A stretch of 64,000 nt of DNA, taken from contig DAOPYA010000006.1 of assembly GCA_035352635.1 (NCBI GenBank), positions 3,742 to 67,741 of the forward strand, read 5' to 3'. The position numbers were made by a program, and so were the translations under genes. Shown here piece by piece: positions 32,924 to 61,510 of this stretch. Each line of letters opens with the position of its first letter. Within the stretch, counting starts at the first letter, position 1. This DNA comes from Candidatus Rifleibacterium sp. (GTDB lineage Bacteria; Muiribacteriota; Ozemobacteria; Ozemobacterales; Ozemobacteraceae). Below the pieces are notes generated by a model. That model saw nothing but the letters and a program-made list of their open reading frames with translations, had not been told where the DNA came from and did not search any database.

Positions 32924-34201
32924 TCAGACAGAACGGCTCAGCTGCTTGAAGAATTCAACCAGTTCAGGCTCGTCTGAGTCTTCGGCAATCTGCAAAAGGG
33001 TCAGCCCGGCCTTATTTTTCATGTTAAGGTCGGCCCCGGCCGAAATCAGACTTCTCACCGCTTCGAATGAACCGTCTTCAACGGCATGCATCAGAGCGGT
33101 ATTGCCCGAGTCATCACGGCGATCAAGCAGAATGCCATATTCGAGCAGCAGGGCGAGAACGTCGAAGTGTTCTTCAAGCACCGCTCTGATCAACGGCGTT
33201 GCGCCGAAGACACCTTTTATTTCGGGGTCAGCACCGGCATCAAGCAGTGCCTTTACGATTTTGATATTGCCAAGGCTGACGGCAAGCAGCAGTGGTGATG
33301 AGCCTTGTACGGCTTCGCAGCGGTGCATGTCTGAATCTTTTTCGATCAGCATTTCGACTGCGGCGAGATTGTCGTTCTGAATTGCCTTGAAGAGAAGGGT
33401 CATGCCTGAATCATCGTTTTCGTTAATCAGCTGCGGATACTGCTTGATCAGCGTTGACAGCTCAGGTAGCCGGTTGTTCTGCAGCAGGCTGACGGCCTTG
33501 CTGAAATGGCCCGAAACCGTGATGGTGCCCGGAATCTTATTTATCGCATCGACAAGTTCTACCAGGCGCAGCCGGTCGAGATTGTCGGGCAGCCCTTCGA
33601 GATAGCCAGCAAGATCTGGCAGGCTGTTCAGGAGAATTGCTGCAACCGTAAGGCTGGCTGACTCGCGAAAATTGGCGAGCAGGCATTCAAGCCCCTGCAC
33701 ATAAAGCACCGGAATATCATTGCTTTTGCCGAAACCGGTCAGAAAACGACCAAAGCCAAAATTGAGGCGGTTGCGCTTCAGGCGCTCAAAATAGATACAG
33801 GCATTCTGAGCCTTCTGTACCCTGGCAACCACGTCCTGTTCGTGAAAAGACAATGTCCAGGCCAGGCGTGACAGTTTGAGGGTCAGGCAGGCGTTTTCCT
33901 GGTTGCATGCCAGTTCGGCGGCCACTGAGGTCATGTAAGCTGTTTGAATGCGATCGAGAGCGAACGGCTGCTCTTCGCTGCTGACAAAAAAATTAAGGGC
34001 TTCAGCGCCGCGTTCGAGCCTGACCAGACAGAGAAAGTGGTAATAACGCTGCCAGCCAAAGAGTGCCGGGTCTACGGGCGGGTTGGCGAGCAGACGGGTG
34101 CGCATTTCCTGGCAGAGATCAAGGGCGCTGGCGTAACTTTCCTGGTTGAGCTGCGTGGCAATCTGTTTAAGATAGGTTTCAAAGATAGTTGGATTTGTCA
34201 T
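32924..34201 (-). CDS. Ankyrin-repeat protein with N-terminal TPR-like helical region
   Basis: At least 4 ankyrin repeats in the C-terminal third (TPLIRAV.., NTALMHAV..G..E..LI.AGADLN). Confidence 0.7.
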   Translation of the reverse strand: MTNPTIFETYLKQIATQLNQESYASALDLCQEMRTRLLANPPVDPALFGWQRYYHFLCLVRLERGAEALNFFVSSEEQPFALDRIQTAYMTSVAAELACNQENACLTLKLSRLAWTLSFHEQDVVARVQKAQNACIYFERLKRNRLNFGFGRFLTGFGKSNDIPVLYVQGLECLLANFRESASLTVAAILLNSLPDLAGYLEGLPDNLDRLRLVELVDAINKIPGTITVSGHFSKAVSLLQNNRLPELSTLIKQYPQLINENDDSGMTLLFKAIQNDNLAAVEMLIEKDSDMHRCEAVQGSSPLLLAVSLGNIKIVKALLDAGADPEIKGVFGATPLIRAVLEEHFDVLALLLEYGILLDRRDDSGNTALMHAVEDGSFEAVRSLISAGADLNMKNKAGLTLLQIAEDSDEPELVEFFKQLSRSV

Positions 34202-37739: not shown

Positions 37740-40205
37740 TCAGGATTTGTCGGTCGGAAACAGAAAGATGAACAGACTGCTTAGTATGCGAAAGGGTAGC
37801 ATAACAATAAAATACAACAACCACACAGAAAATGCGATACCGAGCAAAAACAACGGAATATTAATCAGGGCGCTGACAATATTGGAGAGGTAGTTGTTCC
37901 AGATGCGGACGGTCCAGGGGGTAACGCCTTGTTCGTCAACTTCAACTGATTCGACATACTGGGTCGTTGAGGGGTCGTAGAAGAGTGCCTCGCCACGGTC
38001 TTTTTGTGGTTGGCCGTTCTGGCTCTCAGACCCGTCTTCGACTGTGCCGTGTATGGCACAGGTCAGTATGCCATCGGTAACGAGGTTGCCGATAGTGCCG
38101 TAGGAGCAGCCAATTTCTGGTCTGTTAAGGTCGCTTTTAAGGTATTTTCCTTCTACCAGATATGGGATTTCGTTGTCGGTGACCAGATCAAGCATTTCGG
38201 CGCTTTGGTGATCCATGTTATACATTTCTACGGCACCGAGCAGCACGCGCATGTTGGCGTAGCAGGCTTTTTCGCGGGATTGTTCGCGGGCTTTTCTGAA
38301 GTTTGGTATGGCAATGGCTGCAATGGGCAGAAACCCGGTTGCGCCCCATAATGACACGCCTTTCGCCTCGGTTTTGCGTATAACGGTGCGTTTAACCGGA
38401 GCGCCATGTTTGGCACGGGCCATAGCGGCGGCATGTCTAATGGAAGTCGCGCCGCCGGCTTCGGCGACCTGAGTGACCGGGGTAGTCGAAACAGCTATGA
38501 ACGAGGTGAACGGGGTCGAGAACTGAAATTCTTTGCTGAGGGCGATAACTTCGTCTTTAAGTTGCTGCTTCTGGCCATAGGTCTGCATCTGCAGCATCAG
38601 TTCGTCGGCCTTGGCTCTTGCCCAGTACCGGGCCGCAAAAAGGTTTTCTGAAGAGGTTGCCGGGAAGGAGGCCTGAATGGGGTATTCGTATTTTTCGGCA
38701 TTGATCTTGCCGCTCAGGGTTATCTGCGAATCGCCGGCGTTCTGATAGCGGCCGGTGACCACAAGCTGAGTGCCCTGATACATGTTTGGCAGGGTTTTGG
38801 GGTAGATATCGCTGGCTTCGATGCCTTTCATGTCGAGGGCCAGATCGACGAGCAGCGGAGTGCTGATCGACTGGTAGAAACTGATCAGTTCTTCGTCAAT
38901 GTTGGCCTTTTGTTCATCGAGATAAAGGGCTTCACCACGGTTTTCCATGGCGAGTTTGTTGAGAAGGGTCTGATTGACGCTGTTGCCGACCCCCAGGGTA
39001 AAAGTGCGCACCTGCAGGGTGTTGAGATTGTTGTAGTTGCGGGCGATGGTGTTGGTGTCGGTGATGCCGTTGCTGGCTTCGCCGTCAGTCAAGAAAACCA
39101 GGGTGCGGGTGCGGTCAGGGGTTTCGTCAAACAGGCTGAGAGCGTGGCGAAGCGATTCATCAATATTGGTACCGCCACTGGCACGCAATTGGTCGATAAA
39201 ACCGTGAGCAATATCGCGATTTTCCTTGTTTACTGGCATTAATTCGAGCTTCCAGAGCACGACAGTTGATGAAAAAGAGATGATACCGAAGCGATCTTTT
39301 TCGTTGAGTTTGTTAACAAAGAATTCAAAGGCCTTTTTGGTCTGTTCGATTTTATTGCCAGACATTGAACCGGAGGTATCCATGACGAAAACGATGTCGC
39401 GGTTGACGATGTCTTTCTGGGTGACGATTTCCTGGGGCGAGAGCATCAGCACAAAATAACCGGCTTTTGATGCATCGGGGCGGGTAGCCAGAAAATTGGC
39501 CGCCATTTTGTCGGCTTTAACTTCATAGTCAAGCCTGAAATCACTGTTTGATAAAAAATTATTCTTTTCAAACACCATTTTCCAGTTGGTGGGGGTGATT
39601 TTTTCGGCGTAGATGTCGTGGGTCAGCGAGGTAAGGCCGATAATTTCTTTCTGGTCGGAAACTTCAACGATGAGTGTAACAGCCTCGAGGGGCTGGGTCT
39701 GAAAACCAGCGATGTTAAAAGGCAGGCTGTAGCTAACAATACCCTTGTTGTAGGGCAGAATTTCGCTGTATTCTATGGTGACTGTGGCCCTGGATTTCGG
39801 GCCAATAGCGCCGATACTGGTTTCAAAAACGCCAGGCTGTTTCTGAACGGCCATGGCTGGCATCAAGCCTTCGGATTTGGCTTCGTTAAAAGTTTCTTGG
39901 GCCTGGCCAGATTCTTCAATACGACCTTCGTAAGTCTGGCCCTGGCTGTCGGTCAGTGAAAAATTCTGAACTGAGGCCTTTTCGTGCACCGGAAACTTGA
40001 TATTCGGCTGAATAGTAAAGTCGTGCGGGTTGTAAAAAACCATTTCGAGCCTGGTAATGGCGACCTGGCTGTTGATTTTGACGTTTACTTTCTGGTGAAC
40101 AAGCGGCAGATTGCCCTGAGAGAACACCAGATAAGACGCGTCGGCGGCTGAAAGGCCTGCGAACAGCATAACGATAATGATGATTGATAAAATAAAGTTT
40201 TTCAT
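37740..40205 (-). CDS. VIT + von Willebrand factor A (MIDAS DxSxS) protein fused to a pseudopilin-like domain, with a C-terminal membrane anchor
   Basis: Signal peptide MKNFILSIIIIVMLFAGLSAADA with GGGGAG RBS. VIT region. VWA DIVFVMDTSGSMSG. Remnant pilin helix FLPIAAIAIPNF. GspG-like ACYANMRVLLGAVEMYNMDH..LVEGKYLKS..C..HG. C-terminal hydrophobic segment of about 35 aa. Confidence 0.75.
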   Translation of the reverse strand: MKNFILSIIIIVMLFAGLSAADASYLVFSQGNLPLVHQKVNVKINSQVAITRLEMVFYNPHDFTIQPNIKFPVHEKASVQNFSLTDSQGQTYEGRIEESGQAQETFNEAKSEGLMPAMAVQKQPGVFETSIGAIGPKSRATVTIEYSEILPYNKGIVSYSLPFNIAGFQTQPLEAVTLIVEVSDQKEIIGLTSLTHDIYAEKITPTNWKMVFEKNNFLSNSDFRLDYEVKADKMAANFLATRPDASKAGYFVLMLSPQEIVTQKDIVNRDIVFVMDTSGSMSGNKIEQTKKAFEFFVNKLNEKDRFGIISFSSTVVLWKLELMPVNKENRDIAHGFIDQLRASGGTNIDESLRHALSLFDETPDRTRTLVFLTDGEASNGITDTNTIARNYNNLNTLQVRTFTLGVGNSVNQTLLNKLAMENRGEALYLDEQKANIDEELISFYQSISTPLLVDLALDMKGIEASDIYPKTLPNMYQGTQLVVTGRYQNAGDSQITLSGKINAEKYEYPIQASFPATSSENLFAARYWARAKADELMLQMQTYGQKQQLKDEVIALSKEFQFSTPFTSFIAVSTTPVTQVAEAGGATSIRHAAAMARAKHGAPVKRTVIRKTEAKGVSLWGATGFLPIAAIAIPNFRKAREQSREKACYANMRVLLGAVEMYNMDHQSAEMLDLVTDNEIPYLVEGKYLKSDLNRPEIGCSYGTIGNLVTDGILTCAIHGTVEDGSESQNGQPQKDRGEALFYDPSTTQYVESVEVDEQGVTPWTVRIWNNYLSNIVSALINIPLFLLGIAFSVWLLYFIVMLPFRILSSLFIFLFPTDKS

Positions 40206-40441
40206 CGTTGCTCCCCCTGATTTAATTCTGCCCCAGTATACCGCCACCGATTCAGAAATAATAATGATAAATAATTTCATCTGGCACCAGTGTACCGTGG
40301 CATATAATTGTTAGCAACCGGCATGCCATGTCTTAAAACCATGATCCATTCTGATTTAGCCAGAATATCGGCGAAATTGGTGCGACAAATATGACGCTAT
40401 TATTGTTCGTCGGGTTCGGGTGCTGTTTCGGCGGCAATAAT

Positions 40442-42317: not shown

Positions 42318-43808
42318 TTACAGATTCTTCAGGACCCCGGTCTTTTCATTGAACGCGGTGATCATTTCATCCCAATGTTTGATAACTTCTTCGCTGAATG
42401 CGTCTTCCCAGAATTCGGGATCCCAGAGTTCGTTGAGTTCTTCAACGGTTTTGCCCTGCTGTTCAACCCAGGTATAATACTTGAAGTTGTGCAGGCGCTT
42501 GCGGTCATGATAGTTGAGTTCCATCATGTTCTGGCTGCCTTCACCAAGCATGAAGCGTTCAAAGTCTGCAAGAGCGCGTTCGCCGGTCATTTTGCCATGC
42601 TGATGTTCGAGTTCGCCGAGGCGCGACTGATACATTTCGGCCGAGTCAGTCAGACAGGTGAACAGAATGTCGTTTTCGTCCATTTCATAGAACTTGGCGG
42701 TCTTTACGGCTGAAAGCACATTGCTGACGCTGCTGACGCCGAGGAGCGACAGCTTTTCGATGACTTCGGGCTTAACACCAGCATTTTTAAGCATTGCGTG
42801 ACCTTCGGGGGTGTTGAATACCCTGAACAGCCTCATGCAGTTTTCATCATCCACGGCAACCACCGTGTCGGTATTGCGGGTGTTGTGAATCCAGGGAACA
42901 TGCTTGTCGCCGATACCTTCAATGCGGTGACCACCAAACCCGCAGTTCAGCAGGGTGGGGCACTGAAGTGCTTCAGAAGCGACGATGCGGGCGTGCGGGT
43001 GAATGTGTTTGATGCGGTCGCCAGCGGCGATGGTGCCGGCTGAACCAGTCGCGCTGACCCATGCGGCCATGCGGCTGCGTGGCCCTTTGACCTTTTCAAA
43101 TACTTCAAGGGCGGCGTTGCCGGTCAGGTTGTAGTGCCAGATCGGGTTGCCGATTTCGGCAAACTGATTAAAAATTACGATATTGTTGCCGCGTTCTTTG
43201 ATGAGTTCCCAGCATTTGTCGTAGATTTCTTTGACGTTTGATTCGCAGCCGGGGGTGGCGAAGATTTCGCTCGTGCCGATTTCTTTGAGCCAGGCGAAGC
43301 GCTCGGGGCTCATATCCTGGGGAAGAATGGCAATCGCGGGTGAGCCGAGCAGAGCGCAGTCATAAGCGCCGCCGCGGCAGTAGTTGCCGGTGCTTGGCCA
43401 GACGGCCTTCTGTTTTGTCGGGTCAAATTCACCGCTGACGAGCCGCGGAACCAGACAACTGAAAGCAGCCCCGACCTTGTGAGCGCCGGTGGGAAAATAC
43501 TTGCCGACCAGACCGATGATGCGGGCTTTGACGCCGGTGATGGCGCTGGGCAGTTCAACAAAATTCACATCACCATAAAGACCGGTTTTGGTATCGTTTT
43601 TCCAGGTGATGCGGAACAGGTTGCGGGGATTGACATCCCAAAGACCGAGCGGCTTAACCTGCGTTTTGATTTTTTCGGGGATCAGGTTGGGGTTTTTCTG
43701 CTGGGCAAAAGTCGGAATTACCACATTGCGTTCTTTGGCGCGGTTAACGGTATTTTTGATTACTTCATCATTTACATGAAGTTTGAACTTTTTTAAATAC
43801 TTAGGCAC
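42318..43808 (-). CDS. PLP-dependent fold-type II enzyme (tryptophan synthase beta / cysteine synthase superfamily)
   Basis: 496 aa. Lys-containing GAHKVGAAFS region. Gly-rich PLP phosphate loop. Adjacent to carbamate kinase. Confidence 0.65.
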   Translation of the reverse strand: MPKYLKKFKLHVNDEVIKNTVNRAKERNVVIPTFAQQKNPNLIPEKIKTQVKPLGLWDVNPRNLFRITWKNDTKTGLYGDVNFVELPSAITGVKARIIGLVGKYFPTGAHKVGAAFSCLVPRLVSGEFDPTKQKAVWPSTGNYCRGGAYDCALLGSPAIAILPQDMSPERFAWLKEIGTSEIFATPGCESNVKEIYDKCWELIKERGNNIVIFNQFAEIGNPIWHYNLTGNAALEVFEKVKGPRSRMAAWVSATGSAGTIAAGDRIKHIHPHARIVASEALQCPTLLNCGFGGHRIEGIGDKHVPWIHNTRNTDTVVAVDDENCMRLFRVFNTPEGHAMLKNAGVKPEVIEKLSLLGVSSVSNVLSAVKTAKFYEMDENDILFTCLTDSAEMYQSRLGELEHQHGKMTGERALADFERFMLGEGSQNMMELNYHDRKRLHNFKYYTWVEQQGKTVEELNELWDPEFWEDAFSEEVIKHWDEMITAFNEKTGVLKNL

Positions 43809-43823
43809 GATTTGGCTCCTTGG

Positions 43824-44774
43824 TTATGGGTATACGTGAGTGCCGGCTTCGCCTTTAACGGCGCGGGCAAGATTCTCGGGGTTAGTGATGATGGCATGCT
43901 TGCCACCGTTTTTAATGAACTTGATAATTGCTTCGCATTTCGGAAGCATAGAACCTGGCTTGAAATGGCCTTCTTTGCAATATTTTTCGAGTTCGGCGAC
44001 CGTAACTTTTTCGAGAGATTTCTGATCGGGTTTGCCGAAGTTCAGGCAGGCTTTTTCGACGGCGGTCGATACGATGAACATGTCGGCCTTGATATTCGAG
44101 GCAAGAAGTGCTGACGCAAAGTCTTTGTCGATTACAGCGGCGGTACCTTCAAGGTTGCCTTTGTCGTTGCGAATAACCGGAATCCCACCGCCACCAACTG
44201 CCACGACGCAGAAACCCTTGTCGGCGAGAGTGGTAATCGCATTTTCTTCGATAATTTCGAGGGGCAGCGGTGAGGCTACCACCCGGCGCCAGCCACGGCC
44301 GGCGTCTTCAACCATCGACCAGCCGTCATTCTTGATGCGGTCTTTGGCTTCGGCTTCAGTGTAGAACTGACCGATCGGTTTGCTCGGCTTTTTGAAAGAC
44401 GGGTCGTTTTTATCGACGAGAACCTGCGTTACTACAGTTACTACTGGTTTGCTGATTCCACGTTTTTTGAATTCATTGCCAAGGGCCATCTGAAAATTGT
44501 AGCCGATGGCGCCCTGAGTATCAGCACCGCATGAATCAAGCGGAACCGGGTGCAACTGACTGCGTGCGATTTCGCTGCGCAGCAGAATAAAACCGACCTG
44601 TGGCCCGTTGCCATGCGTCAATACAACGTTATAACCCTGTTCGATCATGTCGGCGACATGAACCATGGTTCTGCAGGCTGCATCATACTGATCTGGTACC
44701 GACTGATGCTTGCTGTCGAGAATCAGTGAATTGCCGCCTACCGCGACTACTGCGAGTTTACCTTTTGCTGCCAT
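43824..44774 (-). CDS. arcC: Carbamate kinase
   Basis: MAAKGKLAVVAVGGNSL..GNGPQVG motifs of the amino-acid kinase family. Confidence 0.85.
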   Translation of the reverse strand: MAAKGKLAVVAVGGNSLILDSKHQSVPDQYDAACRTMVHVADMIEQGYNVVLTHGNGPQVGFILLRSEIARSQLHPVPLDSCGADTQGAIGYNFQMALGNEFKKRGISKPVVTVVTQVLVDKNDPSFKKPSKPIGQFYTEAEAKDRIKNDGWSMVEDAGRGWRRVVASPLPLEIIEENAITTLADKGFCVVAVGGGGIPVIRNDKGNLEGTAAVIDKDFASALLASNIKADMFIVSTAVEKACLNFGKPDQKSLEKVTVAELEKYCKEGHFKPGSMLPKCEAIIKFIKNGGKHAIITNPENLARAVKGEAGTHVYP

Positions 44775-45066
44775 AAAAGTGTCATTCCTTTGTCAGTCAG
44801 CGACTGACTTTGCATATTATGGGTGTAACGAAGCGCCTTCAGCCTTCATTATATTGCCTTAATCGACTTTCCTTGCGTTTTTGTTAGTCTGAATCGAAAT
44901 TTTCTGCACCGATTATACCTGCAAATATTTAAAATGTAAACTTTCCAACGAACCAGGGTATTTAAATACACCTTGAAAAAGGCAATAATGAGGAAATTTT
45001 ATTTTAATCAGTGGTTATAGTTTAATATGCAACAAAGGTGTTCTTTCAATCGTATGATAAAAAAAA

Positions 45067-45696
45067 TTGGGGGTTGATATGCTGGCGAAAAATCTCGTTT
45101 TGAGCGCTTTCCTGGGTGCTGTGTTCTTTTCAGCCGGCTGTGGCAGCCAAGCGACTCCGGCCGCAAAAATCGTCAGCGTCAGTGGCCAGGTTGAAGCTAA
45201 AATCACAGCTGAACAGGGTTTTGCGACTGCGGCAGGCGATATGCAGCTGATGGCAGGCGGTGCCGTGAGAACTGCCAAAGATTCTTCTGCCAGCCTGATG
45301 ACCCTCGCTGATTCTGCAAAAGTCGATGTTGCGGCTGATTCATATTTTGAAGTGCGTGCGGGCAGCGACAAAATTGGGTTTCAGGGCGAGGGCAAGGCGG
45401 TTTATGACGTTAACAAACAGCAGAAATCTATTGTCGTTGAAACCAGGCATGGCAATACGGCGGTTCTCGGTACAAGATTCGGGCAGATAGTTTCGAGCAG
45501 CTCTTTTGAACTTTATGTTGCCAATGGCAAGGTTGAGTTTACAAATAAAACTGGTGAAAAACGCCAGGTTGGTGCCGGCCAGCAGCTAATCTGGAATACT
45601 TCAGAGGCGTTGCCGACGGTCGTTGAAACCAATGTGGTCGAATCAGAGGCAATTTTTGGCTCGGGTGACCGAAGCTTTGAATTTAACCGCCACTGA
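45067..45696 (+). CDS. Lipoprotein with FecR-like beta domain
   Basis: Lipobox LSAGC. Beta-rich FecR-like composition. First gene of the pilin-like operon. Confidence 0.5.
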   Translation: MGVDMLAKNLVLSAFLGAVFFSAGCGSQATPAAKIVSVSGQVEAKITAEQGFATAAGDMQLMAGGAVRTAKDSSASLMTLADSAKVDVAADSYFEVRAGSDKIGFQGEGKAVYDVNKQQKSIVVETRHGNTAVLGTRFGQIVSSSSFELYVANGKVEFTNKTGEKRQVGAGQQLIWNTSEALPTVVETNVVESEAIFGSGDRSFEFNRH

Positions 45697-45778
45697 CAAT
45701 TCAACAGTTTTTCTCAATGCTGCAACAAAAATGATATGCTGACCGTATGCACTTTGTCTGTTAAAGCGAGTTCGTTCG

Positions 45779-47203
45779 ATGGGGGCAAACATGAGATCGT
45801 TTAAAACAAGGCTTGGCATGGCCTTGCCTTTCACGATAATAGCGATGGTTGTGGTAGTTGGCTTTATCATGACCATGAGTCGCATGAATCAGGGTGTGAA
45901 AAACCAGATTTTTCACACCAATAATCACCAGTTGTCGTTTTTAATGGCCTATTCAGCCCTTTCACGGGTTTGTGCCAAAATACACTCTTTTTCGTGGGCG
46001 AATCGGCCGTTTGTTACTGACCCTCTGGTTGAAAACAAAGTGGCTCTGCAGGGTGGCGAGTATGATCTGCTCGTCGAAAACAGCAAAAACCGCGACTTTC
46101 AGGCTGATGTGTATGTGCGCACTCATCTGGCAGGCATTTCCAGAATGTATTTCTGGCGTGTAAGATTTAACGATGACCTGCTCGATGTGTCTAATCAGAT
46201 TTTTGTCGAAGCCTTTTTGAATGCTGATCCAAAAGATTTTCCGGTAGCTGGCAAGGCTAACCCCTTTGCCAGCAGAGTCGAAAGCATGCTTGCCCAGCGA
46301 GTCGCCAACCAGAAAAAATCCGACCAGCTGGCTCGTGAAATCATCAAGCTTAAAAAGCCCAATGATATTATCAAAGAGATTAATGGCCGGCCGATCGCGC
46401 CTGGCGACCCGGGCTTTCCACCCCCGCCTGAAGACATTGAAATTGCAAAAAAAGAACCGGTCGATGTGCCGCAGATGCCGCCACTCCCCGGCTCCGAAAA
46501 GCCATCCGCGCCTGGCCCCAGGGTCAACGTTCCGCCTTCTGCCACCGACAGCATGGTCGGCATCAATATGAATGCAAAGATGGCAAGTGTCGTCAGCTCT
46601 TCAAAATCGGCCTACGACTACACCGACCAGGGCTGGAAAAAAATTGAAGAGAAGGGAGTTGGGGGGATGTCAGAAGCGACTGATCTTCACACCCAGGCTG
46701 CCGAAGCCCGAGAAAAGGCCTTTGATGATATGAGCGATTTGATAACCGATGCCAGAACAGGCATCAATGACGCACCCAGCTCCGGTGCCGCAAAGGCCAT
46801 CGAAGAAATGGTTTCCCAGACGATCGTCGCCGGCGTGCAAAACCTCGGAAACGCCCTCAACCGAGGCATGGATCACCTTGACAACAACGCCGGCAGTGAT
46901 TATCTCAACTCATTGCCAACTGCAGAGTCGGTTGCCAAGCTTACCACCGACTGGGAAACCGCCCTGGTTAACGTAACCGCAGATGTTACCCGAATGACTG
47001 AATTGGCCAACGAAATCGGCCCATTTGCCAAGGCACCCGAAGTCGAGGCGGCTCTTGCAGCTGCCCTCGAGCAGGCCAGAGCTAATGTTGAACAGTTGAC
47101 CAAACTGGTTGAAGATGCAAAAAAGAGGCTCGAAGAACTCATCAAAAAAGAAGAAGAAGAAGCCGAGCGCCTTCGACAGCAGGAAAACGAGAGCCAGCAA
47201 TGA
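45779..47203 (+). CDS. Pilus/pseudopilus-associated protein with degenerate N-terminal pilin-like helix (PilX/GspK-like), Pro-rich linker and C-terminal coiled coil
   Basis: N-terminal LGMALPFTIIAMVVVVGFIMTMS. PPPPEDIE/PPLPGSEKPSAPGP linker. Stop overlaps the next gene's start (ATGA). Confidence 0.5.
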   Translation: MGANMRSFKTRLGMALPFTIIAMVVVVGFIMTMSRMNQGVKNQIFHTNNHQLSFLMAYSALSRVCAKIHSFSWANRPFVTDPLVENKVALQGGEYDLLVENSKNRDFQADVYVRTHLAGISRMYFWRVRFNDDLLDVSNQIFVEAFLNADPKDFPVAGKANPFASRVESMLAQRVANQKKSDQLAREIIKLKKPNDIIKEINGRPIAPGDPGFPPPPEDIEIAKKEPVDVPQMPPLPGSEKPSAPGPRVNVPPSATDSMVGINMNAKMASVVSSSKSAYDYTDQGWKKIEEKGVGGMSEATDLHTQAAEAREKAFDDMSDLITDARTGINDAPSSGAAKAIEEMVSQTIVAGVQNLGNALNRGMDHLDNNAGSDYLNSLPTAESVAKLTTDWETALVNVTADVTRMTELANEIGPFAKAPEVEAALAAALEQARANVEQLTKLVEDAKKRLEELIKKEEEEAERLRQQENESQQ

Positions 47204-47730
47204 AAATGCAGCACAAATCCGGAACCACCCTTGTCGAGCTTCTTGTGGTAATTGGCCTGGTGGGTTTGATCGGGGCCGCCGGCATGCACTTTTTTACCTC
47301 CGTAAACACCAGCCAGAAGGCTTTTTCGCAACAGGCGATTCTTCAGATGGAATCGCGCAAGGCATTCGACCAGATTATCGATCAGATTCGCGAGGGCACT
47401 GATGTAATCAGGCCTGTCACCGGCGAAACCATGCATTATATGGTTTTTCGCGACCTGCTGAATCAGGTGAACATGTTGTATCTCGAACCAAATAATGATG
47501 AATCAGTGCGCCTTAAACAGAGGGTTTACCGGCTGGTTTCATACTGCAATGATTTTTCAGGGGCATATAACAAGGCCAATGAAAAGATTTTGCACAATTC
47601 AATCAAGCAGTTACGGTTTTCGAGCCTTTCGCCTTCAAGCGTGCAGGTTAATGCAACCGTCGTCAGTGATAAGGGCGAATATCAGTTTCTCGCCCACGTC
47701 GGTTTGTTGAATGTCGGGGGGATCGAATGA
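47200..47730 (+). CDS. Prepilin-type N-terminal cleavage/methylation domain protein (minor pseudopilin-like)
   Basis: SG/TTLVELLVVIGLVGLIGAA with Glu +5. Confidence 0.7.
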   Translation: MKMQHKSGTTLVELLVVIGLVGLIGAAGMHFFTSVNTSQKAFSQQAILQMESRKAFDQIIDQIREGTDVIRPVTGETMHYMVFRDLLNQVNMLYLEPNNDESVRLKQRVYRLVSYCNDFSGAYNKANEKILHNSIKQLRFSSLSPSSVQVNATVVSDKGEYQFLAHVGLLNVGGIE

Positions 47731-49097
47731 AAACTTCGCGCAGACAGGGCATGACCCTTATCGAAATAACGATTGGCTTTGCCATTTTAACGGCGATCAG
47801 CGCCTTTTTTCTCAGTTTTCTGACTTCTTCTTCAAAAGAGATTTCGTTTTCGGCAGATCACTTTAATGCGGTTATTCTATCGCAGAAGGTCTGCGAAGAT
47901 TTGCTTGAAGAGATCGCCGTAAACCCTTATGGCCTTGAGACCCTTGGCATCGACGAATCAATCAACAGCAAACATGACGTTGTTGATGGCAGTTCGGTGT
48001 TCTTCTCTTTTATCGAAGACCGCACTGAGCCGTGGGGTTTGATTGAGCCGGCTAAAGATGGCATGATCAACAGTTCTATGCAGCCGCTTTATAGTTCAGT
48101 TAAAAAATTTAAATTCGGGGTTTCGGGCAGGCGCTTGGCAAAGACCGGCGACCACGAAGACCGCAATCTGGTTTCGTGCAATGTTGACTTCTCGTGGAGC
48201 GCTCAAACCGGCAAGGGAGCCTATAACAATTCATTTGAGCTTTTTTCGCCAGTTTCGGTCAAAAAGGTCTCGCTGGGCGTGTCGCTTAACGAGGCTGCAA
48301 TCGATGCCCGGATTCCCCCGGAAGTCTTTTATCAGCCCTCACAAACCATCGGAGAACTCGCAACCCGGATCGGTGAAAACGTTGATGCGGTGCTTTCGGT
48401 CGGGCGTATTTCTCTGGTAAGCCGCGACTTTATCAATTCACAGTTCTACCGTGATTCAAAAGATGCCATCAGGATTCTTTTGCGTAAACTCTCGACTCTT
48501 TCGGCCGATGACAGCGAAGAAATCTTCGAAACCCGCTTGCAGCTGGCAAAGACCTGGTATGAGCAGGCAAAGGTCTGCTTTCAGATCATCAGCTACCTCG
48601 AGCCGCATTTCACCACTCTGCAACAGCAGGGAAAATTTGACGGCACTTCTGGCAGCGGTTTTAACCCTATCAGTTTTCAACAAGATCTCATGAGCTTCAG
48701 AATCATTTATGAATTCTTTGCTGGTGCGATTGTTCAGGCCAGGTTTCATTATTATCAGCTGTTGCAGCCGGCCATGGTCGCTTTAAAAGGCAACAAGGCC
48801 CAGCTTCAGGTCATTCAGAAACTTATCGATATTTACCGCATCACTTCAATATTGCCCACCAGACCAGAAGGCATGGCAGAGTATCGAAGTTTTCTTAATC
48901 GCATCAAGGGCCTGTCAGAGAACCGTAACCCATTTGTTAACCGTATGATCGGCCATGAATTGAAGATGCTTGATAATCGCAATGACTGGCTGCAGCATTA
49001 CCCGAACCTTGGCCGCATCGATGATATGCTAACCGGCAAAATGCCGGGTATTCTTGCCTTCATAAAGACAAAGACCATAGGGGCGCTCACAAATTAA
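47727..49097 (+). CDS. Large prepilin-type N-terminal domain protein (GspK/minor pilin-like, 456 aa)
   Basis: RQG/MTLIEITIGFAILTAISAFF with Glu +5. Translationally coupled to the upstream pilin-like gene. Confidence 0.65.
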   Translation: MKTSRRQGMTLIEITIGFAILTAISAFFLSFLTSSSKEISFSADHFNAVILSQKVCEDLLEEIAVNPYGLETLGIDESINSKHDVVDGSSVFFSFIEDRTEPWGLIEPAKDGMINSSMQPLYSSVKKFKFGVSGRRLAKTGDHEDRNLVSCNVDFSWSAQTGKGAYNNSFELFSPVSVKKVSLGVSLNEAAIDARIPPEVFYQPSQTIGELATRIGENVDAVLSVGRISLVSRDFINSQFYRDSKDAIRILLRKLSTLSADDSEEIFETRLQLAKTWYEQAKVCFQIISYLEPHFTTLQQQGKFDGTSGSGFNPISFQQDLMSFRIIYEFFAGAIVQARFHYYQLLQPAMVALKGNKAQLQVIQKLIDIYRITSILPTRPEGMAEYRSFLNRIKGLSENRNPFVNRMIGHELKMLDNRNDWLQHYPNLGRIDDMLTGKMPGILAFIKTKTIGALTN

Positions 49098-49440
49098 GCC
49101 GGCCGACACACTCCGGGTTGCAATTTTTGTGCGTGCATAAGCTTTAAAGGCCTGTCTGGCCAGTTGATTTGCGGGCAAGAAACCGCACCGCTGGTGCAGA
49201 GGCCGATCAGTCTCTCAGTAATCAATCGTTATCAGGTATATCAACCGAAACGTATTAGCCTTCTTTTGTCAACCCAGCCTTTGACGCGCTTCTTTTTGCC
49301 GCTGTTGTGAAGACTGCCTTCATGTCGGTGCCCGCCTCTTGTAATAAAATGGAATATTCCCCACAATTCCCACAACCCGGCGCGAGGCCCTTTAATTGAC
49401 GCAAAAGGTTCTTTCGGCTCCCCGTAGATTTTTGCAGGCC
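49036..49440. pseudogene. Degenerate first copy of the duplicated module: flank Y1, deleted remnant of the 73-aa gene, promoter element P1
   Basis: 49036-49270 is about 90% identical to 51359-51590. 49271-49345 matches 51693-51790 (an internal deletion has removed most of the small gene). 49346-49410 is identical to 54250-54314. Confidence 0.7.
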
Positions 49441-49625
49441 TCAATAACACCCGGATTGAAAAATGGCCGCATGTCAAAAATTCGCGCATCGCCACTCAGC
49501 CATCAAGCCTGAAAAAACTGCGCGAACTCAAAAACCTCGCGGCCGAAGAAACCGCCGCAAAATAACCTTGTGGCCGATTTCCCTGGGCCGGTGACCTCGA
49601 AAAAATGACCTAAGACTCATGATTT

Positions 49626-50840
49626 TTAAGTCTGCTGGCTGAGGTCATGCAGGCGTTTTTTTGTGACTTTTTCGAGTTGGGTTCTTTGTTTTTCGGTCAT
49701 GGGGATCTGCTGCAGAATGGCTGAATACTGGCAGAACCTTGCTGTCAGCCGGTCGAGCATTTTGCTGACCGCCGCTTCAGAAACTCCGAACCGCCCGGCA
49801 AAGCTGACAAGATTACTCCTTTTGATGTTGTCGTCACGTCCATCAAGTTTCAAGGCCATTTTGTGGTCACCATAAATATGTGTGCAGAGCAGATCGTAGG
49901 CCGGCGAGACCTCGACTATCCTGCTTCCAGACTTGACGAGCAGGCTGATATTCTTTGCATGCAGATCGCCGTTGCCAATGAGATACGAGAACGCATAAAC
50001 CTCAATCAGCCTTAGTATGGCAACCTTCGCCGCCGATACATGCGTTGTGACGCCCCTGGCAATATCATTAAAAGCGACTCGATACTTGTCGGCCGGGTAG
50101 CGGTCGAGCATCTGGCAGGCGTCTTCCTGATGATGCCTAAGAAATCTGCCGGTTTTTTCGTTCCAGACGCGGTCGAATCGTGTGACGAGAAGGCCATTAT
50201 TGCCGTCGCGGTCTCTAACCAGACTGGTTCTGGCCGCTTCAATGCTGCATTTTTGTGCTAGTTGCATGCAGAAGTGTTCATTCTCAACCAGATTCGGTTT
50301 GTCGGGCGGATTCAACTTGAGAATATACCGGCAATTCTCTTTCGCAATGTTGACAGGGAAACTGATCATCGATGCCGAGAGTTTTTCCTGGGCTCCTGCA
50401 ATCGCCTCGTCGCGCATAATTGCATTGCCGGATAACACTTTCTGAAAATATTCGTAGAAATTTATTTCTCTGAGCTTTGGAATCTGTGCTTCATCCTCAG
50501 AGCGCTCGACGCCGGCATAGACATCACCGATTACCTGATCGCCGATGCTTGCGAAAAGACTGAAAAGATCGTCTTCAGAAGTCTTTAGATTTCGCACCAG
50601 CGACTTTAATCGTAACCCTTCGGGCAGCAGTCCCGCAAAAAACGGAAAAAGATTGACGCCAGGGTTGATCAGGCGTGCCGGGCTTTTCTTCATGCAGAAA
50701 GAAATCCCTGCAAAATTCTGCTGCCGCAGAAAATCGTCGTCGAACACAAACTCGCAGCCGGCAGGCGTTCTGCGCAAGATTCCGGCTCGCTGACCATCTC
50801 GAAAGATGTTTAATTCGCTGATCGAACGGGCGTCTTTCAT
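49626..50840 (-). CDS. hipA: HipA-family serine/threonine kinase toxin
   Basis: HipA N and C domains. GNGDLHAKNISL catalytic motif. 4-bp overlap with hipB. Confidence 0.85.
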   Translation of the reverse strand: MKDARSISELNIFRDGQRAGILRRTPAGCEFVFDDDFLRQQNFAGISFCMKKSPARLINPGVNLFPFFAGLLPEGLRLKSLVRNLKTSEDDLFSLFASIGDQVIGDVYAGVERSEDEAQIPKLREINFYEYFQKVLSGNAIMRDEAIAGAQEKLSASMISFPVNIAKENCRYILKLNPPDKPNLVENEHFCMQLAQKCSIEAARTSLVRDRDGNNGLLVTRFDRVWNEKTGRFLRHHQEDACQMLDRYPADKYRVAFNDIARGVTTHVSAAKVAILRLIEVYAFSYLIGNGDLHAKNISLLVKSGSRIVEVSPAYDLLCTHIYGDHKMALKLDGRDDNIKRSNLVSFAGRFGVSEAAVSKMLDRLTARFCQYSAILQQIPMTEKQRTQLEKVTKKRLHDLSQQT

Positions 50841-51094
50841 TTTTCAACAATATTCTCTGAAGTTCGGAAGCCTGAACCTCCGGGGGTAAGGGCCAACTCG
50901 AGGCCGAGAACATCAATTACGGCAAGCAGCTTGTCGAGCTGTGTTTTGGGCTTGCCGTTTTCGAGCTGCGAAACGTAGTTAAGACTGACACCCGCCAGGT
51001 CGGCCAGCTGTGTCTGAGTCAGACCGAGATTTTTGCGGTAGTCCTTGATTGCCGCACCTAATTTTTTAGTTACCTGCGAACTCGAATTGTTCAT
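50837..51094 (-). CDS. hipB: HipB-like XRE-family HTH antitoxin/transcriptional regulator
   Basis: LGLTQTQLADLAGVSLNYVSQLENGK helix-turn-helix. Confidence 0.8.
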   Translation of the reverse strand: MNNSSSQVTKKLGAAIKDYRKNLGLTQTQLADLAGVSLNYVSQLENGKPKTQLDKLLAVIDVLGLELALTPGGSGFRTSENIVEK

Positions 51095-51157: not shown

Positions 51158-51366
51158 TTACAATGATCGTGCGAAAAAAGTTAAAAATCCTCTGAAAAAA
51201 TATAATTCTGCAGGAAATTCATGCGATCATGTGAAAAATGATTGTTTTATGGCTGCCCCTGATTCTGACGCTGACCCTTTTTCTGGTCTGGCCCCAGGTC
51301 TCTCTGCCACGGCTTTTTCAAAGACTGCAATGCGTTCCGCATGCATCTGCTGGCGAAATGCCTGGC
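51158..51366 (-). pseudogene. Deleted copy (X2) of the 3' part of the periplasmic-protein gene 55835-56458 and its downstream DNA
   Basis: 51158-51291 matches 55756-55876 and 51291-51366 matches 56070-56150. The 195-bp internal deletion is bounded by TTCTGG short repeats. Encodes only the C-terminal ..KKGQRQNQGQP fragment. Confidence 0.7.
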
Positions 51367-51538
51367 ATTCTTGCCTTCATCAAGGCAAAAACCATTGGGG
51401 CGCTCACAAATTAAACTGGTCGCTGCACTCCGGGTTGCCATTTTTGTGCGTGCATAAGCTTTAAAGGCCTGCATGGCCAGTTGATTGGCGGGAAGGAAGC
51501 CGCAACGCTGGTGCAGAGGCCGATCAGCCGCTCAGTAA

Positions 51539-51760
51539 TCAATCGTTATCAGGTATATCAACCGAAACGTATTCGCCTTCTTTTGGTGTGCGTTTTTTGA
51601 AATTTTCAATTGGCACATAAATCTCAATGGTGGCATCAGGGTCATCGGGGTGCTTGATAACCACCACCACAATGCCGCCGGTTACGCGGTCTACCCAGCC
51701 TTTGACGCGCTTCTTTTTGCCGCTGTTATGAAGACTGCCTTCATGTCGGTGCCCGCTCAT
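51539..51760 (-). CDS. Small hypothetical protein (73 aa, basic N-terminus, acidic C-terminus)
   Basis: Intact copy. A deleted remnant lies at 49271-49345. Immediately downstream of the 755-aa gene. Confidence 0.5.
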   Translation of the reverse strand: MSGHRHEGSLHNSGKKKRVKGWVDRVTGGIVVVVIKHPDDPDATIEIYVPIENFKKRTPKEGEYVSVDIPDND

Positions 51761-56748: not shown

Positions 56749-57951
56749 ATGAGCAACTCAAAGAAAATCATGGAACTGGCTGAGAAGTATCGCGATTATA
56801 CTGCCAAAAACCTTGGCAAGATGGTCAAAATTCCCTCTGAAAGCATGAAGGAAAAAGACGTTCAGGCAGAAGCCGCCCGTCAGATGAAAGAAGCCGGTTT
56901 CGATGAAGTTCGCATCGATGGACTCGGAAACGTTATCGGCCGCATCGGCAAGGGCAAAACTGTCATCGCCATTGATGGCCATGTTGATACAGTCGGGGTC
57001 GGCAACCGCGCCAACTGGGAATTTGATCCGTTCAGCGGCGATGTCAAAGACGGTTATGTCTGGGGCCGTGGAACCATCGACCAGGAAGGCGGCATCGCTT
57101 CAGCAATTACCGCCGGCCGCATTCTTAAAGACATGGGCTTTGACCGCGACGTTACTTTTTATGTAGTCAGCTCAGTCATGGAAGAAGATTGCGATGGTCT
57201 CTGCTGGAAATACCTCGTCGAAGAAGAAAAACTCAAACCAGACTTCGTCATCAGCACTGAACCGACTAACCTCAACATCTATCGCGGTCATCGCGGTCGT
57301 ATGGAAATCGGCGTCGATTTCCGTGGTATTTCGTGCCATGGTTCAGCCCCTGAACGCGGCAAAAACGCTGTTTACATGGCAGCTAAATTTGCTCTCGAAG
57401 TCGAAAAACTTAACGAACGCCTGAAACACGATGATTTTCTTGGCAAAGGCACGGTGACCATTTCTGAATTCAAATCAGGCAGCCCGTCACTCTGTGCCGT
57501 AGCCGATTCGGTCCACATTCACCTTGATCGCCGCCTTACCTGGGGCGAAACCAAAGATTCAGCTGTCAAAGAAGTTGAAGATGTCATCAAGGCTATCGGC
57601 CTCAAACTGAACGATGAAGCCAAAGTCGAAGTTCTTCATTACGAAGAAGTCGCTTACACCGGCCTTAAATACGGCATGGAAAAGTATTTCCCCACCTGGA
57701 AAATCCCCGAAACCGAACACGTCGTTCAGACTGGCGTAAAATCATTCAAGGAACTGTTCAATAAAGACCCGAAGGTCGATAAATGGACATTCTCGACCAA
57801 CGGCGTTACCATCAACGGCTATTACAAGATTCCGATGATCGGCTTTGGCCCGGGCAACGAAGTTTACGCGCACGCTCCGAACGAAAAGATTCCGGTTGAT
57901 GATCTTGTGAAGGCTTCGGCTTTCTACGCCCAGTTCGCTTATAATATCTGA
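56749..57951 (+). CDS. ygeY: YgeY-family M20 peptidase/deacylase (selenium/purine-catabolism-associated)
   Basis: High similarity along the whole length to E. coli YgeY (VKIPSES.., EEDCDGLCW, RGRMEI, SCHGSAPERG, NEKIP). Confidence 0.8.
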   Translation: MSNSKKIMELAEKYRDYTAKNLGKMVKIPSESMKEKDVQAEAARQMKEAGFDEVRIDGLGNVIGRIGKGKTVIAIDGHVDTVGVGNRANWEFDPFSGDVKDGYVWGRGTIDQEGGIASAITAGRILKDMGFDRDVTFYVVSSVMEEDCDGLCWKYLVEEEKLKPDFVISTEPTNLNIYRGHRGRMEIGVDFRGISCHGSAPERGKNAVYMAAKFALEVEKLNERLKHDDFLGKGTVTISEFKSGSPSLCAVADSVHIHLDRRLTWGETKDSAVKEVEDVIKAIGLKLNDEAKVEVLHYEEVAYTGLKYGMEKYFPTWKIPETEHVVQTGVKSFKELFNKDPKVDKWTFSTNGVTINGYYKIPMIGFGPGNEVYAHAPNEKIPVDDLVKASAFYAQFAYNI

Positions 57952-58042
57952 GGTTAAAGCCCGTTGGGCAGGTTTTAAAATGCCTGTTCAACGGTTCTCT
58001 TTTGTCTGTAGGGTTTTAAACAAATACAAAAAGGAAATATAA

Positions 58043-59233
58043 ATGAAAGAATTAAATGCTCTGCTGAAAGAAATCAAGGGTTACAAAAGCAAAATGCACG
58101 GTAAAGATTTCCTCCTCACCTGGGAAAAATCCACCGACGAGCTGAAACAGATTCTTGCCATCGCCGACCTGCTCAAATTGATGCGCGAAAAGAACATTTC
58201 TGCAAAGGTGTTTGACAGCGGTATCGCCGTATCTTTGTTCCGCGACAATTCGACCCGCACCAGATTTTCTTTTGCTTCAGCATGTAATTTGCTTGGCCTC
58301 GCCGTCCAGGATCTCGACGAAGGCAAATCGCAGATCGCTCATGGCGAAACCGTTCGCGAAACTGCGAACATGATTTCTTTCCTGTCAGAAGTTATCGGCA
58401 TTCGCGATGACATGTATCTCGGCGCCGGCAATACCTATATGCGTGAAGTCGGTGATGCTCTTGATGACGGTGTTAAGCAGGGTGTTCTGCCGCAGAGACC
58501 TGCGGTTGTTAACCTTCAGTGCGATATCGATCACCCGACCCAGGCAATGGCCGACCTCGGCTGGCTCAAAGAACATTTTGGCGGGCTCGATAAACTCAAA
58601 GGCAAGAAGATCGCGATGACCTGGGCGTATTCACCGAGTTACGGCAAGCCCCTTTCCGTACCCCAGGGTATTATCGGCCTGATGACCCGCTTTGGCATGG
58701 ATGTCGCTCTTGCTCACCCCGAAGGCTACAACCTGATACCCGATGTAATGGAAGTCGCGAAGAAAAACGCCAAGGAAAGCGGCGGCAAATTCAGCGTCAG
58801 CAACAGCATGGAAGAAGCCTTCAAGGGTGCTGACATCGTTTACCCGAAGAGCTGGGCGCCTTATGCCGTTATGGGCAGGCGCACTGAACTGCTGCGCAAG
58901 AACGATCACGATGGTCTCAAGGCTCTCGAAAAAGAATGTCTGGCCAACAATGCCAAGTTCAAAAACTGGGAATGCACCGAAGAAATGATGAAGCACACTA
59001 AAAAAGGCAAGGCGCTCTACATGCACTGCCTGCCCGCCGACATCACTGACGTTTCGTGCAAGGCCGGTGAAGTTGCCGCCAGCGTTTTTGACCGCTATCG
59101 CATTGAAACTTACAAAGAAGCCGGTTACAAGCCCTATATGATCGCTGCCATGATTCTGACCACCCGCTTTAAAGAAGTGCCGGGCATGCTCGAAGCCCTG
59201 GTTGAAAAAGGCCGCAAAAGAATCAAGTTCTGA
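58043..59233 (+). CDS. ygeW: YgeW-family knotted carbamoyltransferase (oxamate carbamoyltransferase-like)
   Basis: Near-colinear match to E. coli YgeW (FRDNSTRTRFS, DEGKSQIAHGETVRETANMISF, NLQCDIDHPTQ, KIAMTWAYSPSYGKPLSVPQGIIGLMTRFGMDV, YMHCLPADI). Confidence 0.85.
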   Translation: MKELNALLKEIKGYKSKMHGKDFLLTWEKSTDELKQILAIADLLKLMREKNISAKVFDSGIAVSLFRDNSTRTRFSFASACNLLGLAVQDLDEGKSQIAHGETVRETANMISFLSEVIGIRDDMYLGAGNTYMREVGDALDDGVKQGVLPQRPAVVNLQCDIDHPTQAMADLGWLKEHFGGLDKLKGKKIAMTWAYSPSYGKPLSVPQGIIGLMTRFGMDVALAHPEGYNLIPDVMEVAKKNAKESGGKFSVSNSMEEAFKGADIVYPKSWAPYAVMGRRTELLRKNDHDGLKALEKECLANNAKFKNWECTEEMMKHTKKGKALYMHCLPADITDVSCKAGEVAASVFDRYRIETYKEAGYKPYMIAAMILTTRFKEVPGMLEALVEKGRKRIKF

Positions 59234-59251
59234 TATTACCTCCGGTTATTT

Positions 59252-59285
59252 TAAAAGGCTTCAGGTGAACTGAAGCCTTTTTTTA
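59252..59285 (+). terminator. Rho-independent terminator after ygeW
   Basis: GGCTTCAGGTGAACTGAAGCC followed by TTTTTTT. Confidence 0.7.
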
Positions 59286-59363
59286 TGGCGATTTTTCGGT
59301 TCGCCGCGGGTCTGGTTAAAGCAACTTTGACCCGGGCGCATCAGAGGGGGATTTATAGAACCC

Positions 59364-61418: not shown

Positions 61419-61449
61419 AAATACCTATCCAACCTGATTACAACGTGTC

Positions 61450-61510
61450 TATATAAGAGAGCATCGAGTATTTTTCGCCGATGCGACGGCGCGGCCTATC
61501 AGCCGGGTTT
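61450..61510 (+). repeat. Copy 4 of the roughly 60-bp dispersed element, followed by an 11-bp-stem hairpin (61521-61558)
   Basis: CTATATAAGAGAGCATCGAGTATTTTTCGCCGATGCGACGGCGCGGCCTATCAGCCGGG. Confidence 0.6.

Follow-up and report, generated by a model that had tools for sequence, protein, structure and literature searches.

A conserved three-gene, minor-pilin-like module in Riflebacteria and its recurrent FecR-domain neighbor

We analyzed a 64,000-nucleotide stretch of DNA from Candidatus Rifleibacterium sp. (contig DAOPYA010000006.1; hereafter, the window) in which four open reading frames (ORFs) lie on one strand, at positions 45079 to 49097, and encode in order a FecR-domain lipoprotein and three proteins of 470 or 474, 176, and 456 amino acids (aa). 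The last three, here called the trio, belong to unannotated protein families that together form a conserved, multicopy minor-pilin-like module found so far only in Riflebacteria, an uncultured phylum. Judged from their sequences, all three proteins have pilin-type N-termini, and two of these combine a Gly or Ala at the putative cleavage site with a Glu at position +5 of the mature protein (Glu+5). We think it probable that the trio forms the minor-pilin complex, that is, the tip or priming complex, of a lineage-specific type IV filament.

A gene trio with pilin-type N-termini

The four genes had been described in an initial annotation, made without database searches, as an operon that begins after an AT-rich region and in which three genes are translationally coupled. 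This layout is borne out. The four ORFs are in place, the 474/176 and 176/456 junctions each consist of a 4-nt ATGA overlap, and the 304-bp spacer ahead of the FecR gene has a GC content of 33.9%, compared with 50.4% for the window (Table 1). The FecR ORF opens at a TTG codon (45067-45696, 209 aa), but we prefer the ATG at 45079, which is preceded by a GGGGG Shine-Dalgarno sequence and agrees with the 205-aa JGI gene call on the matching metagenome contig, Ga0116247_10000798. For the 474-aa ORF, the likelier start is the ATG at 45791, as in the NCBI call for the identical protein, which is likewise assigned to Candidatus Rifleibacterium sp., giving a protein of 470 aa; depending on the start, only 82 to 94 nt (45697-45790) separate this gene from the FecR gene. 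Counts of sigma-70-like matches on both strands of the spacer are no higher than in shuffled sequence, and the combined promoter and terminator scan, with counts within the shuffled-sequence range, was uninformative. No tRNA and no Rfam family was found in the window.

Homologs of each trio protein come from Riflebacteria or Ozemobacteraceae wherever they are named. An exhaustive HMMER profile search for the 456-aa family returned 219 cluster representatives at E <= 0.001; among 20 that we sampled, distant ones included, the 3 that carry a name are all from Riflebacteria. When each GTDB species was represented by one genome, a scan yielded 25 loci, again assigned to Riflebacteria where the lineage is named, and several of the metagenome-assembled genomes (MAGs) have two copies. 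The trio is conserved as a unit in 27/27 distinct loci whose neighborhoods are otherwise unrelated. The gene order is 474-176-456 in all but one of them, a divergent paralog arranged as 176-456-474, and 22/23 loci preserve the ATGA overlap of the 176- and 456-aa genes. The trio genes are coupled in translation and are inherited together. In one locus (L011, 1-6420) the canonical trio is tandemly duplicated, and further divergent paralogs of the trio are found in the same Riflebacteria genomes. Divergent trios were seen in L089 (5277-11725; 197, 310, and 574 aa) and L091 (8209-11668; 180, 405, and 555 aa), and L026 (12851-16488) holds three prepilins together with a 711-aa protein that has a GspK-style N-terminus.

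The initial annotation had assigned class III signal-peptide-like N-termini to all three proteins and a canonical Glu+5 to two, and the family alignments uphold both assignments. The putative leaders of the trio proteins are 8 to 9 residues long. In alignments that span down to 32% identity, Glu+5 is invariant in both families, and the residue at position -1 is Gly or Ala in 30/30 aligned sequences of the 456-aa family and in 24/24 of the 176-aa family. A six-frame regular-expression scan for the class III motif with an uncharged hydrophobic run singled out 3 of the 336 window ORFs of at least 50 aa, namely the 176- and 456-aa genes and a small ORF on the opposite strand that is described below. 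Among PDB sequences, type IV pilin N-termini are all that the 176-aa profile matches (best E = 0.0025). The 176- and 456-aa families are homologous to each other over their N-terminal 89 columns (hhalign, 94.5%). Matches of the trio to NCBIfam models are weak and N-terminal (XpsI, GspI, GspH, and GspJ); the subthreshold matches to gspI (E = 0.17), gspJ (E = 0.039), and XpsI (E = 0.0012) all fall within the first 50 to 60 residues. Two further families were considered and set aside: among the Verru_Chthon cassette models (TIGR02596-TIGR02600), only cassette protein D gave a match (E = 0.073), over the N-terminal helix of the 176-aa protein, and matches to HpsJ were subthreshold or limited to the N-terminus.

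The 474-aa protein begins (M)RSFKTRLG/MALPF. Throughout its family Glu+5 is absent, whereas the Gly at -1 is conserved wherever the N-terminus is present and is followed by [MVI][AV][LIM]P, with the Pro at +4 invariant. A missing Glu+5 is established as the hallmark of GspK-type cap subunits (Korotkov and Hol 2008). The 474-aa protein matches no Pfam family, and membership in the GspK and PilX families themselves was ruled out, as neither the GspK model (T2SSK) nor PilX matches it.

Structure prediction of all three proteins had been named in the initial annotation as a check on its reading. We built AlphaFold2 models from the family alignments; they cover the 474- and 456-aa proteins, and to each they give a pilin head. 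In the 474-aa model (mean predicted local distance difference test score [pLDDT], 77.3), a 56-residue helix (residues 16-71) packs on a five-stranded antiparallel sheet (strands 83-149) and is followed by a further helix, a disordered Pro-rich linker (residues ~200-263), and a helical bundle (264-473). The model bears out the Pro-rich linker and the coiled coil that had been read from the sequence, the latter as predicted helices, and it places the helical module after a complete sheet and the linker instead of inserting it into the sheet. In the 456-aa model (pLDDT, 83.8), a helix (11-65) and three strands (128-173) precede an all-helical region of ~270 residues (189-455). As modeled, both large proteins are a pilin head with a large helical C-terminal module. 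When we compared the models with the PDB by Foldseek, the only tight match of the 474-aa protein was to the pilin domain of ComZ (6qvi; 104-105 columns; root mean square deviation, 3.0-3.7 A; probability, 0.99-1.00). The whole 456-aa model found nothing below E = 0.01 in the PDB, only helical repeats of the 14-3-3 and TPR-like kinds. At the sequence level, the 474- and 456-aa profiles matched generic helical bundles or nothing among PDB sequences, and the globular parts showed no match to known pilins. Of the earlier "PilX/GspK-like" label for the 474-aa protein, what stands is the conserved Gly, the missing Glu+5, and the predicted fold close to ComZ, itself GspK-like; what does not stand is a relationship at the level of the GspK and PilX models.

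Table 1. Features discussed in the text (window positions; a slash separates leader from mature protein)
Feature	Position	Strand	Description
AT-rich intergenic spacer	44775..45078		between divergent carbamate-kinase gene and FecR gene; probable promoter region
FecR-domain lipoprotein	45079..45696	+	205 aa from ATG 45079; PF04773
GspK-style pilin-like protein, 474 aa (probably 470)	45779..47203	+	predicted pilin head, Pro-rich linker, long helical bundle
176-aa prepilin-type protein	47200..47730	+	leader MKMQHKSG, mature TTLVE
456-aa prepilin-type protein	47727..49097	+	leader MKTSRRQG, mature MTLIE; predicted ~270-aa C-terminal helical domain
Small canonical prepilin, 127 aa	34205..34588	-	TAG/FTLIELMIVIAIIGIL; N_methyl and TIGR02532 above cut-offs

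Assembly machinery and known tip complexes

Pfam scans of the non-nested window ORFs of at least 150 aa found no member of the T2SSE, T2SSF, secretin, or prepilin-peptidase families, which agrees with the earlier statement that the window holds no assembly ATPase, platform protein, secretin, or prepilin peptidase. In no locus, either, does assembly machinery occur less than 10 kb from the canonical trio. The operon is therefore an "orphan" in the literal sense, as it had been called, but this status is unremarkable because the genes of type IVa pili are normally scattered over several operons, with the core minor pilins in an operon of their own (PMC7248040).

That the machinery is encoded elsewhere, as the initial annotation had proposed, is supported by other Riflebacteria, in which paralogs of all four genes adjoin a gene for a PilB-family ATPase. 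This ATPase matches the PilB model TIGR02538 over its full length (E = 4.2e-177) and GspE with E = 3.7e-162, and it has the Pfam domains T2SSE and MshEN. It is ~1160 to 1190 aa long, with a C-terminal extension of ~600 aa, in L029 (16765-20187, minus strand) and in L031-L063 (e.g., L037, 9989-13465). Three repeats within the extension carry an RFKPW(Q/E)F-like motif. The extension's possible identity as a fused platform protein was ruled out, as the C-terminal 590 aa match no Pfam family and contain no transmembrane segment. Nearly always, the ATPase gene is preceded by a gene for a BsuPI-like secreted protein, and often it is followed by one for a 246- to 280-aa protein that looks PP2C-like by eye and has no Pfam match.

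The clearest linkage is in L037, where the ATPase gene is followed by genes for a 280-aa protein, a glutaredoxin, an extracytoplasmic function (ECF) sigma factor, and a FecR-domain anti-sigma factor, and then, 3 kb downstream of the ATPase, by a four-gene paralogous module in the order 176-like prepilin, FecR lipoprotein, 474-like protein with collagen repeats, and 456-like prepilin. The members of this module align with the window families with hhalign probabilities of 98.7 to 99.5%. The start of the same arrangement is seen in L031; in L029 a paralogous trio lies 5.5 kb from the ATPase gene; and in L033 and L036 genes of the 176-aa family and other pilin-like genes, with a GspK-style gene added in L036, lie just upstream of it. 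One MAG (GCA_015232575.1) carries both a canonical trio (L018) and an ATPase locus (L029). In L037 the 474 paralog (17817-18980) is shorter, at 387 aa, and C-terminal collagen triple-helix repeats (PF01391, E = 3.5e-6) replace the helical bundle, which suggests that the C-terminal module of the 474-type subunit is exchangeable. In the literature on pili or secretion systems we found nothing specific to Riflebacteria or Ozemobacter.

The window also encodes a small prepilin, 10 kb from the operon, that the initial annotation had overlooked. It scores 37.7 bits against N_methyl (cut-off, 21.2) and 31.8 bits against TIGR02532 (cut-off, 16.3) and has partial matches to the GspH, PilA, ComGC, and GspG models. 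By these matches it could be a major pilin or pseudopilin, and it may be linked to the operon. The small prepilin gene ends 3 nt before the start of a gene for a 425-aa ankyrin-repeat protein (32924-34201, minus strand); homologs of this protein (36% identity) are encoded next to or close to the trio in L010, L019, and L021.

We compared the trio with characterized tip complexes. In the GspI-GspJ-GspK structure from enterotoxigenic Escherichia coli (Korotkov and Hol 2008), GspK caps GspI-GspJ (PMC7248040). The trio likewise consists of three consecutive pilin-like proteins of unequal size, of which the largest lacks Glu+5 and would cap the filament and the other two have the G/xxxxE motif, and in both systems an additional alpha-helical module, a predicted one in the trio, makes the actual or putative cap subunit oversized for the body of a filament. 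However, the helical domain of GspK is inserted in the beta-sheet, whereas the predicted helical modules of the trio are C-terminal to the pilin head, behind a Pro-rich linker in the 474-aa protein. The trio also lies outside the GspI (TIGR01707), GspJ (TIGR01711), and GspK (T2SSK) models, its second subunit (456 aa) is oversized too, and it has a FecR lipoprotein partner and no gsp operon: none of the other gsp genes (GspC-M, secretin) was found within 10 kb in any of the 27 loci. ComZ of Thermus thermophilus has a pilin domain that is closest to GspK, is not a predicted PilD substrate, and is placed at the pilus tip by its authors (PMC6561018). At ~550 aa, with this GspK-like domain and a gene beside that of a smaller partner pilin, PilA2, it resembles the trio in organization (PMC6561018). 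It differs in carrying an inserted, DNA-binding beta-solenoid (PMC6561018) where the Riflebacteria proteins have predicted C-terminal helical bundles, and we detected no sequence similarity between ComZ and the Riflebacteria proteins.

The core minor pilins of type IVa pili (FimU-PilV-PilW-PilX with PilY1 in Pseudomonas aeruginosa; PilH-I-J-K in Neisseria) resemble the trio in occupying a separate operon far from pilBCD and pilMNOPQ. They prime assembly, sit at the tip, and have a large vWA or non-pilin partner, with which the 1914-aa protein of L017 and L020 may be compared. They differ in comprising four genes plus PilY1, whereas the trio has three genes with large modules fused to the pilins; the PilV (TIGR02523), PilW, and PilX models have no match in the trio, and there is no PilY1. 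Lastly, modular pilins such as the type IVb proteins TcpB and CofB are described as oversized minor pilins of >400 aa in which domains are appended to a pilin and which initiate assembly at the tip (PMC5207764; PMC7248040). The 474- and 456-aa proteins would resemble them as single oversized minor pilins with appended domains, and would differ from them in that TcpB and CofB have beta-rich C-terminal domains, long type IVb leaders, and a place inside a single machinery operon. By sequence models, the trio belongs to neither the GspI-J-K, the ComZ-PilA2, nor the type IVa minor-pilin families. By analogy, it would work most like GspI-J-K and ComZ-PilA2 and would occupy the genomic niche of a type IVa minor-pilin operon.

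The FecR-domain lipoprotein and the wider neighborhood

The first gene of the operon encodes a FecR-domain lipoprotein, as had been annotated: the protein matches Pfam FecR (PF04773) with 36.6 bits (E = 6.3e-9; cut-off, 24 bits), and the lipobox Cys ([AVT]-G-C-G) is kept in all 16 homologs examined, the ATPase-linked paralogs included. Against the FecR equivalog model it reaches 25 bits, with a cut-off of 385. We ruled out that this protein is itself an anti-sigma factor because it is a 205-aa lipoprotein without a cytoplasmic domain, and Pfam scans of the window ORFs found neither an ECF sigma factor nor a TonB receptor.

The FecR gene is a frequent but separable neighbor of the trio. A FecR-family gene lies directly upstream or downstream of the trio in 17/27 distinct loci, and in 14/27 the trio is flanked by a pair made up of a FecR gene and a gene for a CHASE2-SpoIIE (PP2C) membrane sensor of ~620 aa. 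In the closest relatives (L002 and L006-L009; 72-90% protein identity), the order is FecR, then a 622-aa CHASE2-SpoIIE (PP2C) protein (~6100-7990), then the trio, whereas in the window the FecR gene is followed by the trio directly, and tblastn found no CHASE2-PP2C partner anywhere in the window. The window has either lost this partner or never had it.

A secreted FecR-domain protein encoded beside a CHASE2 sensor has been described as a conserved signaling pair in the "BiofilmReg" operon of Burkholderiales (PMC5192318), and the direct adjacency of the two genes in 14/27 Riflebacteria loci is the point of likeness. The two lineages differ in output: in Burkholderiales it is a histidine kinase (PMC5192318), in Riflebacteria an adenylate cyclase or a PP2C phosphatase (SpoIIE). 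Also unlike the Burkholderiales pair, the Riflebacteria FecR protein is a lipoprotein without LysM that is linked to pilin-like genes, and in the window the CHASE2 partner is absent.

Other signaling genes recur near pilin-like genes. In L036 a CHASE2-adenylate cyclase gene lies between the pilin-like genes and the PilB-like ATPase gene, in L037 a pair of ECF sigma and FecR-type anti-sigma genes lies within the ATPase-linked module, and in L012 (14199-17683, minus strand) ORFs judged, from their N-terminal sequences only, to be ECF-sigma-like and anti-sigma-like are followed by pilin-like genes. The window itself has two tandem HAMP-adenylate/guanylate cyclase genes at 1964-7922 (minus strand; 967 and 1022 aa), homologs of which lie within a few kilobases of the trio in L002, L006, L007, L009, L014, and L015 and may point to a cAMP link.

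A vWA protein adjoins the trio in two loci: in L017 (11431-17175) and L020 (5021-10765), the gene for a 1914-aa secreted vWA protein lies on the same strand as the 456-aa homolog and begins 39 nt beyond it. Partners of minor pilins at the pilus tip include vWA proteins such as PilY1. The window encodes an 846-aa VIT-vWA protein (37740-40280, minus strand) that is 27% identical to the 1914-aa protein; its gene is on the strand opposite to the operon, 4.8 kb upstream.

Directly downstream of the operon, direct repeats at 49035-49335 and 51352-51756 (234 nt at 90% plus 68 nt at 97%) bracket the toxin-antitoxin pair hipBA (49626-51094, minus strand). The first copy begins within the final 63 nt of the 456-aa gene, and small minus-strand ORFs at 49241-49495 and 51539-51760 have the peptide GHRHEGSLHNSGKKKRVKGWVD in common. 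These repeats look like a duplication that accompanied insertion of hipBA. On a larger scale, genes for carbamate kinase, a PALP enzyme, an M20 peptidase, an OTCase-like protein, and an amidohydrolase (42318-44774 and 56749-62912), which we take to be a ygeW/ygeX/ygeY/ssnA-type purine-catabolism set of the kind that is usually clustered, are split by a block of ~12 kb containing the FecR-trio operon, hipBA, and genes for a 755-aa TPR protein and a C39-like peptidase. Since the neighborhood of the trio in the window is unlike that in L002 and L006-L009, this suggests that the block was inserted or relocated.

Alternative readings and a proposed role

Several observations weigh against a minor-pilin complex. 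The window proteins score 17.3 and 16.9 bits against Pfam N_methyl (PF07963), below the cut-off of 21.2, with E = 0.0035 for the 176-aa protein, and 13.8 bits against TIGR02532, below the cut-off of 16.3; a few family members do carry a precomputed PF07963 match. The case for class III signal peptides therefore rests on family-wide conservation. For every trio protein, the scores against named pilin, pseudopilin, GspI/J/K, and PilV/W/X models stay below threshold, the E-value of the ComZ (6qvi) match is weak (0.13-0.31), and there are three genes where core minor pilins usually number four. On the side of the machinery, the PilB-like ATPase is atypical (~1160 aa, with its extension of 600 aa) and has no adjoining platform gene, and searches of the window and of ~0.9 Mb of Riflebacteria loci turned up no PilC/GspF, PilD, or secretin, the PilC search in those loci being a rough one whose probe hidden Markov model took in a few non-PilC sequences. 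A complete machine is thus not demonstrated for the Riflebacteria lineage.

These points bear differently on the alternatives. Were the N-termini ordinary Sec signal peptides or signal anchors that resemble pilins by chance, the N_methyl and TIGR02532 scores below cut-off and the globular parts without a sequence match to any known pilin would be expected. Yet Glu+5 is invariant, and Gly or Ala holds position -1, down to 32% identity in two families; the motif occurs in just 3/336 window ORFs; several family members do pass N_methyl in precomputed PF07963 matches; and the two models pack N-terminal helices of ~55 residues onto beta-sheets. An acidic residue within the hydrophobic core is, moreover, not expected in a Sec signal peptide. 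We regard a chance resemblance as highly improbable and, because of the conservation data, as excluded for practical purposes. A closer relative of our reading is that the trio caps a periplasmic, type II secretion-like pseudopilus, as an analog of GspI-J-K that moves substrates through a secretin, and not a surface pilus. Three coupled genes of which one lacks Glu+5 follow the logic of GspI-J-K (PMC7248040); XpsI, GspI, GspH, and GspJ are the NCBIfam models that the N-termini match weakly; the predicted fold resembles ComZ and GspK; and the linked ATPase is a strong match to GspE (E = 3.7e-162). The same ATPase, however, scores higher, and over the full length, against PilB (E = 4.2e-177), no gsp context (GspC, D, F, L, or M) exists in any of the 27 loci, and no major pseudopilin GspG or GspH adjoins the trio. 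Pro-rich, coiled-coil, and collagen-like modules would also be more in keeping with a tip exposed at the surface than with a short piston in the periplasm. On balance a pseudopilus seems rather unlikely.

It is also conceivable that the trio never polymerizes, its members being pilin-like proteins that are processed by the peptidase, stay anchored in the inner membrane, and form with the FecR lipoprotein a periplasmic sensory or scaffolding complex for CHASE2-PP2C, adenylate-cyclase, or ECF-sigma signaling. The recurrence of FecR-domain (17/27 loci) and CHASE2-PP2C (14/27) neighbors is in keeping with such a complex, as are the CHASE2-adenylate cyclase of L036, the ECF sigma and FecR anti-sigma pair of L037, the similar ORFs of L012 (N-terminal sequences only), the precedent of a conserved FecR-CHASE2 signaling pair (PMC5192318), and the finding of no platform or secretin gene nearby. 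But an invariant Glu+5, and a set of subunits of which two have this Glu and one does not, are traits selected for the assembly of filaments, the paralogous module is linked to an assembly ATPase, and the window keeps its trio without any CHASE2 gene. We consider a nonpolymerizing complex unlikely.

We therefore favor a minor-pilin complex with machinery encoded elsewhere; this proposal of the initial annotation is supported by the evidence above, and we infer a function at the tip. A prepilin peptidase encoded elsewhere would remove the leaders. Within the inner membrane, the three N-terminal helices would then associate into a staggered trimer capped by the 474-aa protein, which lacks Glu+5, much as GspK caps GspI-GspJ. 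The trimer would prime polymerization of a major pilin, for which the small prepilin is a candidate, by the PilB-family ATPase. The complex would stay at the tip, where the helical modules of the 474- and 456-aa proteins, being too bulky for the filament body, would be displayed as a binding or receptor end; the collagen-like end of the 474 paralog in L037 fits an exposed fibrous tip module.

The FecR-domain lipoprotein would be a periplasmic accessory that probably links envelope signaling to the state of the filament or tip complex, through the adjacent CHASE2-PP2C sensor in most relatives and through the ECF sigma and FecR-type anti-sigma pair in the ATPase-linked paralog; it could partner CHASE2 sensors, ECF anti-sigma factors, or both. 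A bolder extension is that the lipoprotein and trio form a dedicated filament-based envelope signaling device, specific to Riflebacteria and a pilus-driven analog of TonB-dependent cell-surface signaling. The FecR-domain lipoprotein would read tip-complex engagement or assembly state in the periplasm, and the signal would pass to CHASE2 sensors with PP2C or adenylate-cyclase outputs or to a FecR-type anti-sigma and ECF sigma pair. We put this forward as a speculation and think it quite unlikely.

Minor-pilin tip complexes decide what a filament does, whether adhesion, DNA uptake, secretion, or surface sensing, and to our knowledge Proteobacteria, Thermus, Firmicutes, and cyanobacteria have supplied nearly all that is known about them. 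The Riflebacteria module recurs in linkage with FecR-domain, CHASE2, and ECF-sigma signaling genes and with the gene for an unusual PilB-type ATPase of 1160 aa. It overturns no current concept, being a variant of a well-known kind of system and not a new machine. If our reading is right, the module would widen the range of tip subunits and offer a concrete candidate for the coupling of a filament to envelope signaling, and its importance would be greatest if the filament module proves to be functionally linked to signaling through the FecR, CHASE2, and ECF genes.

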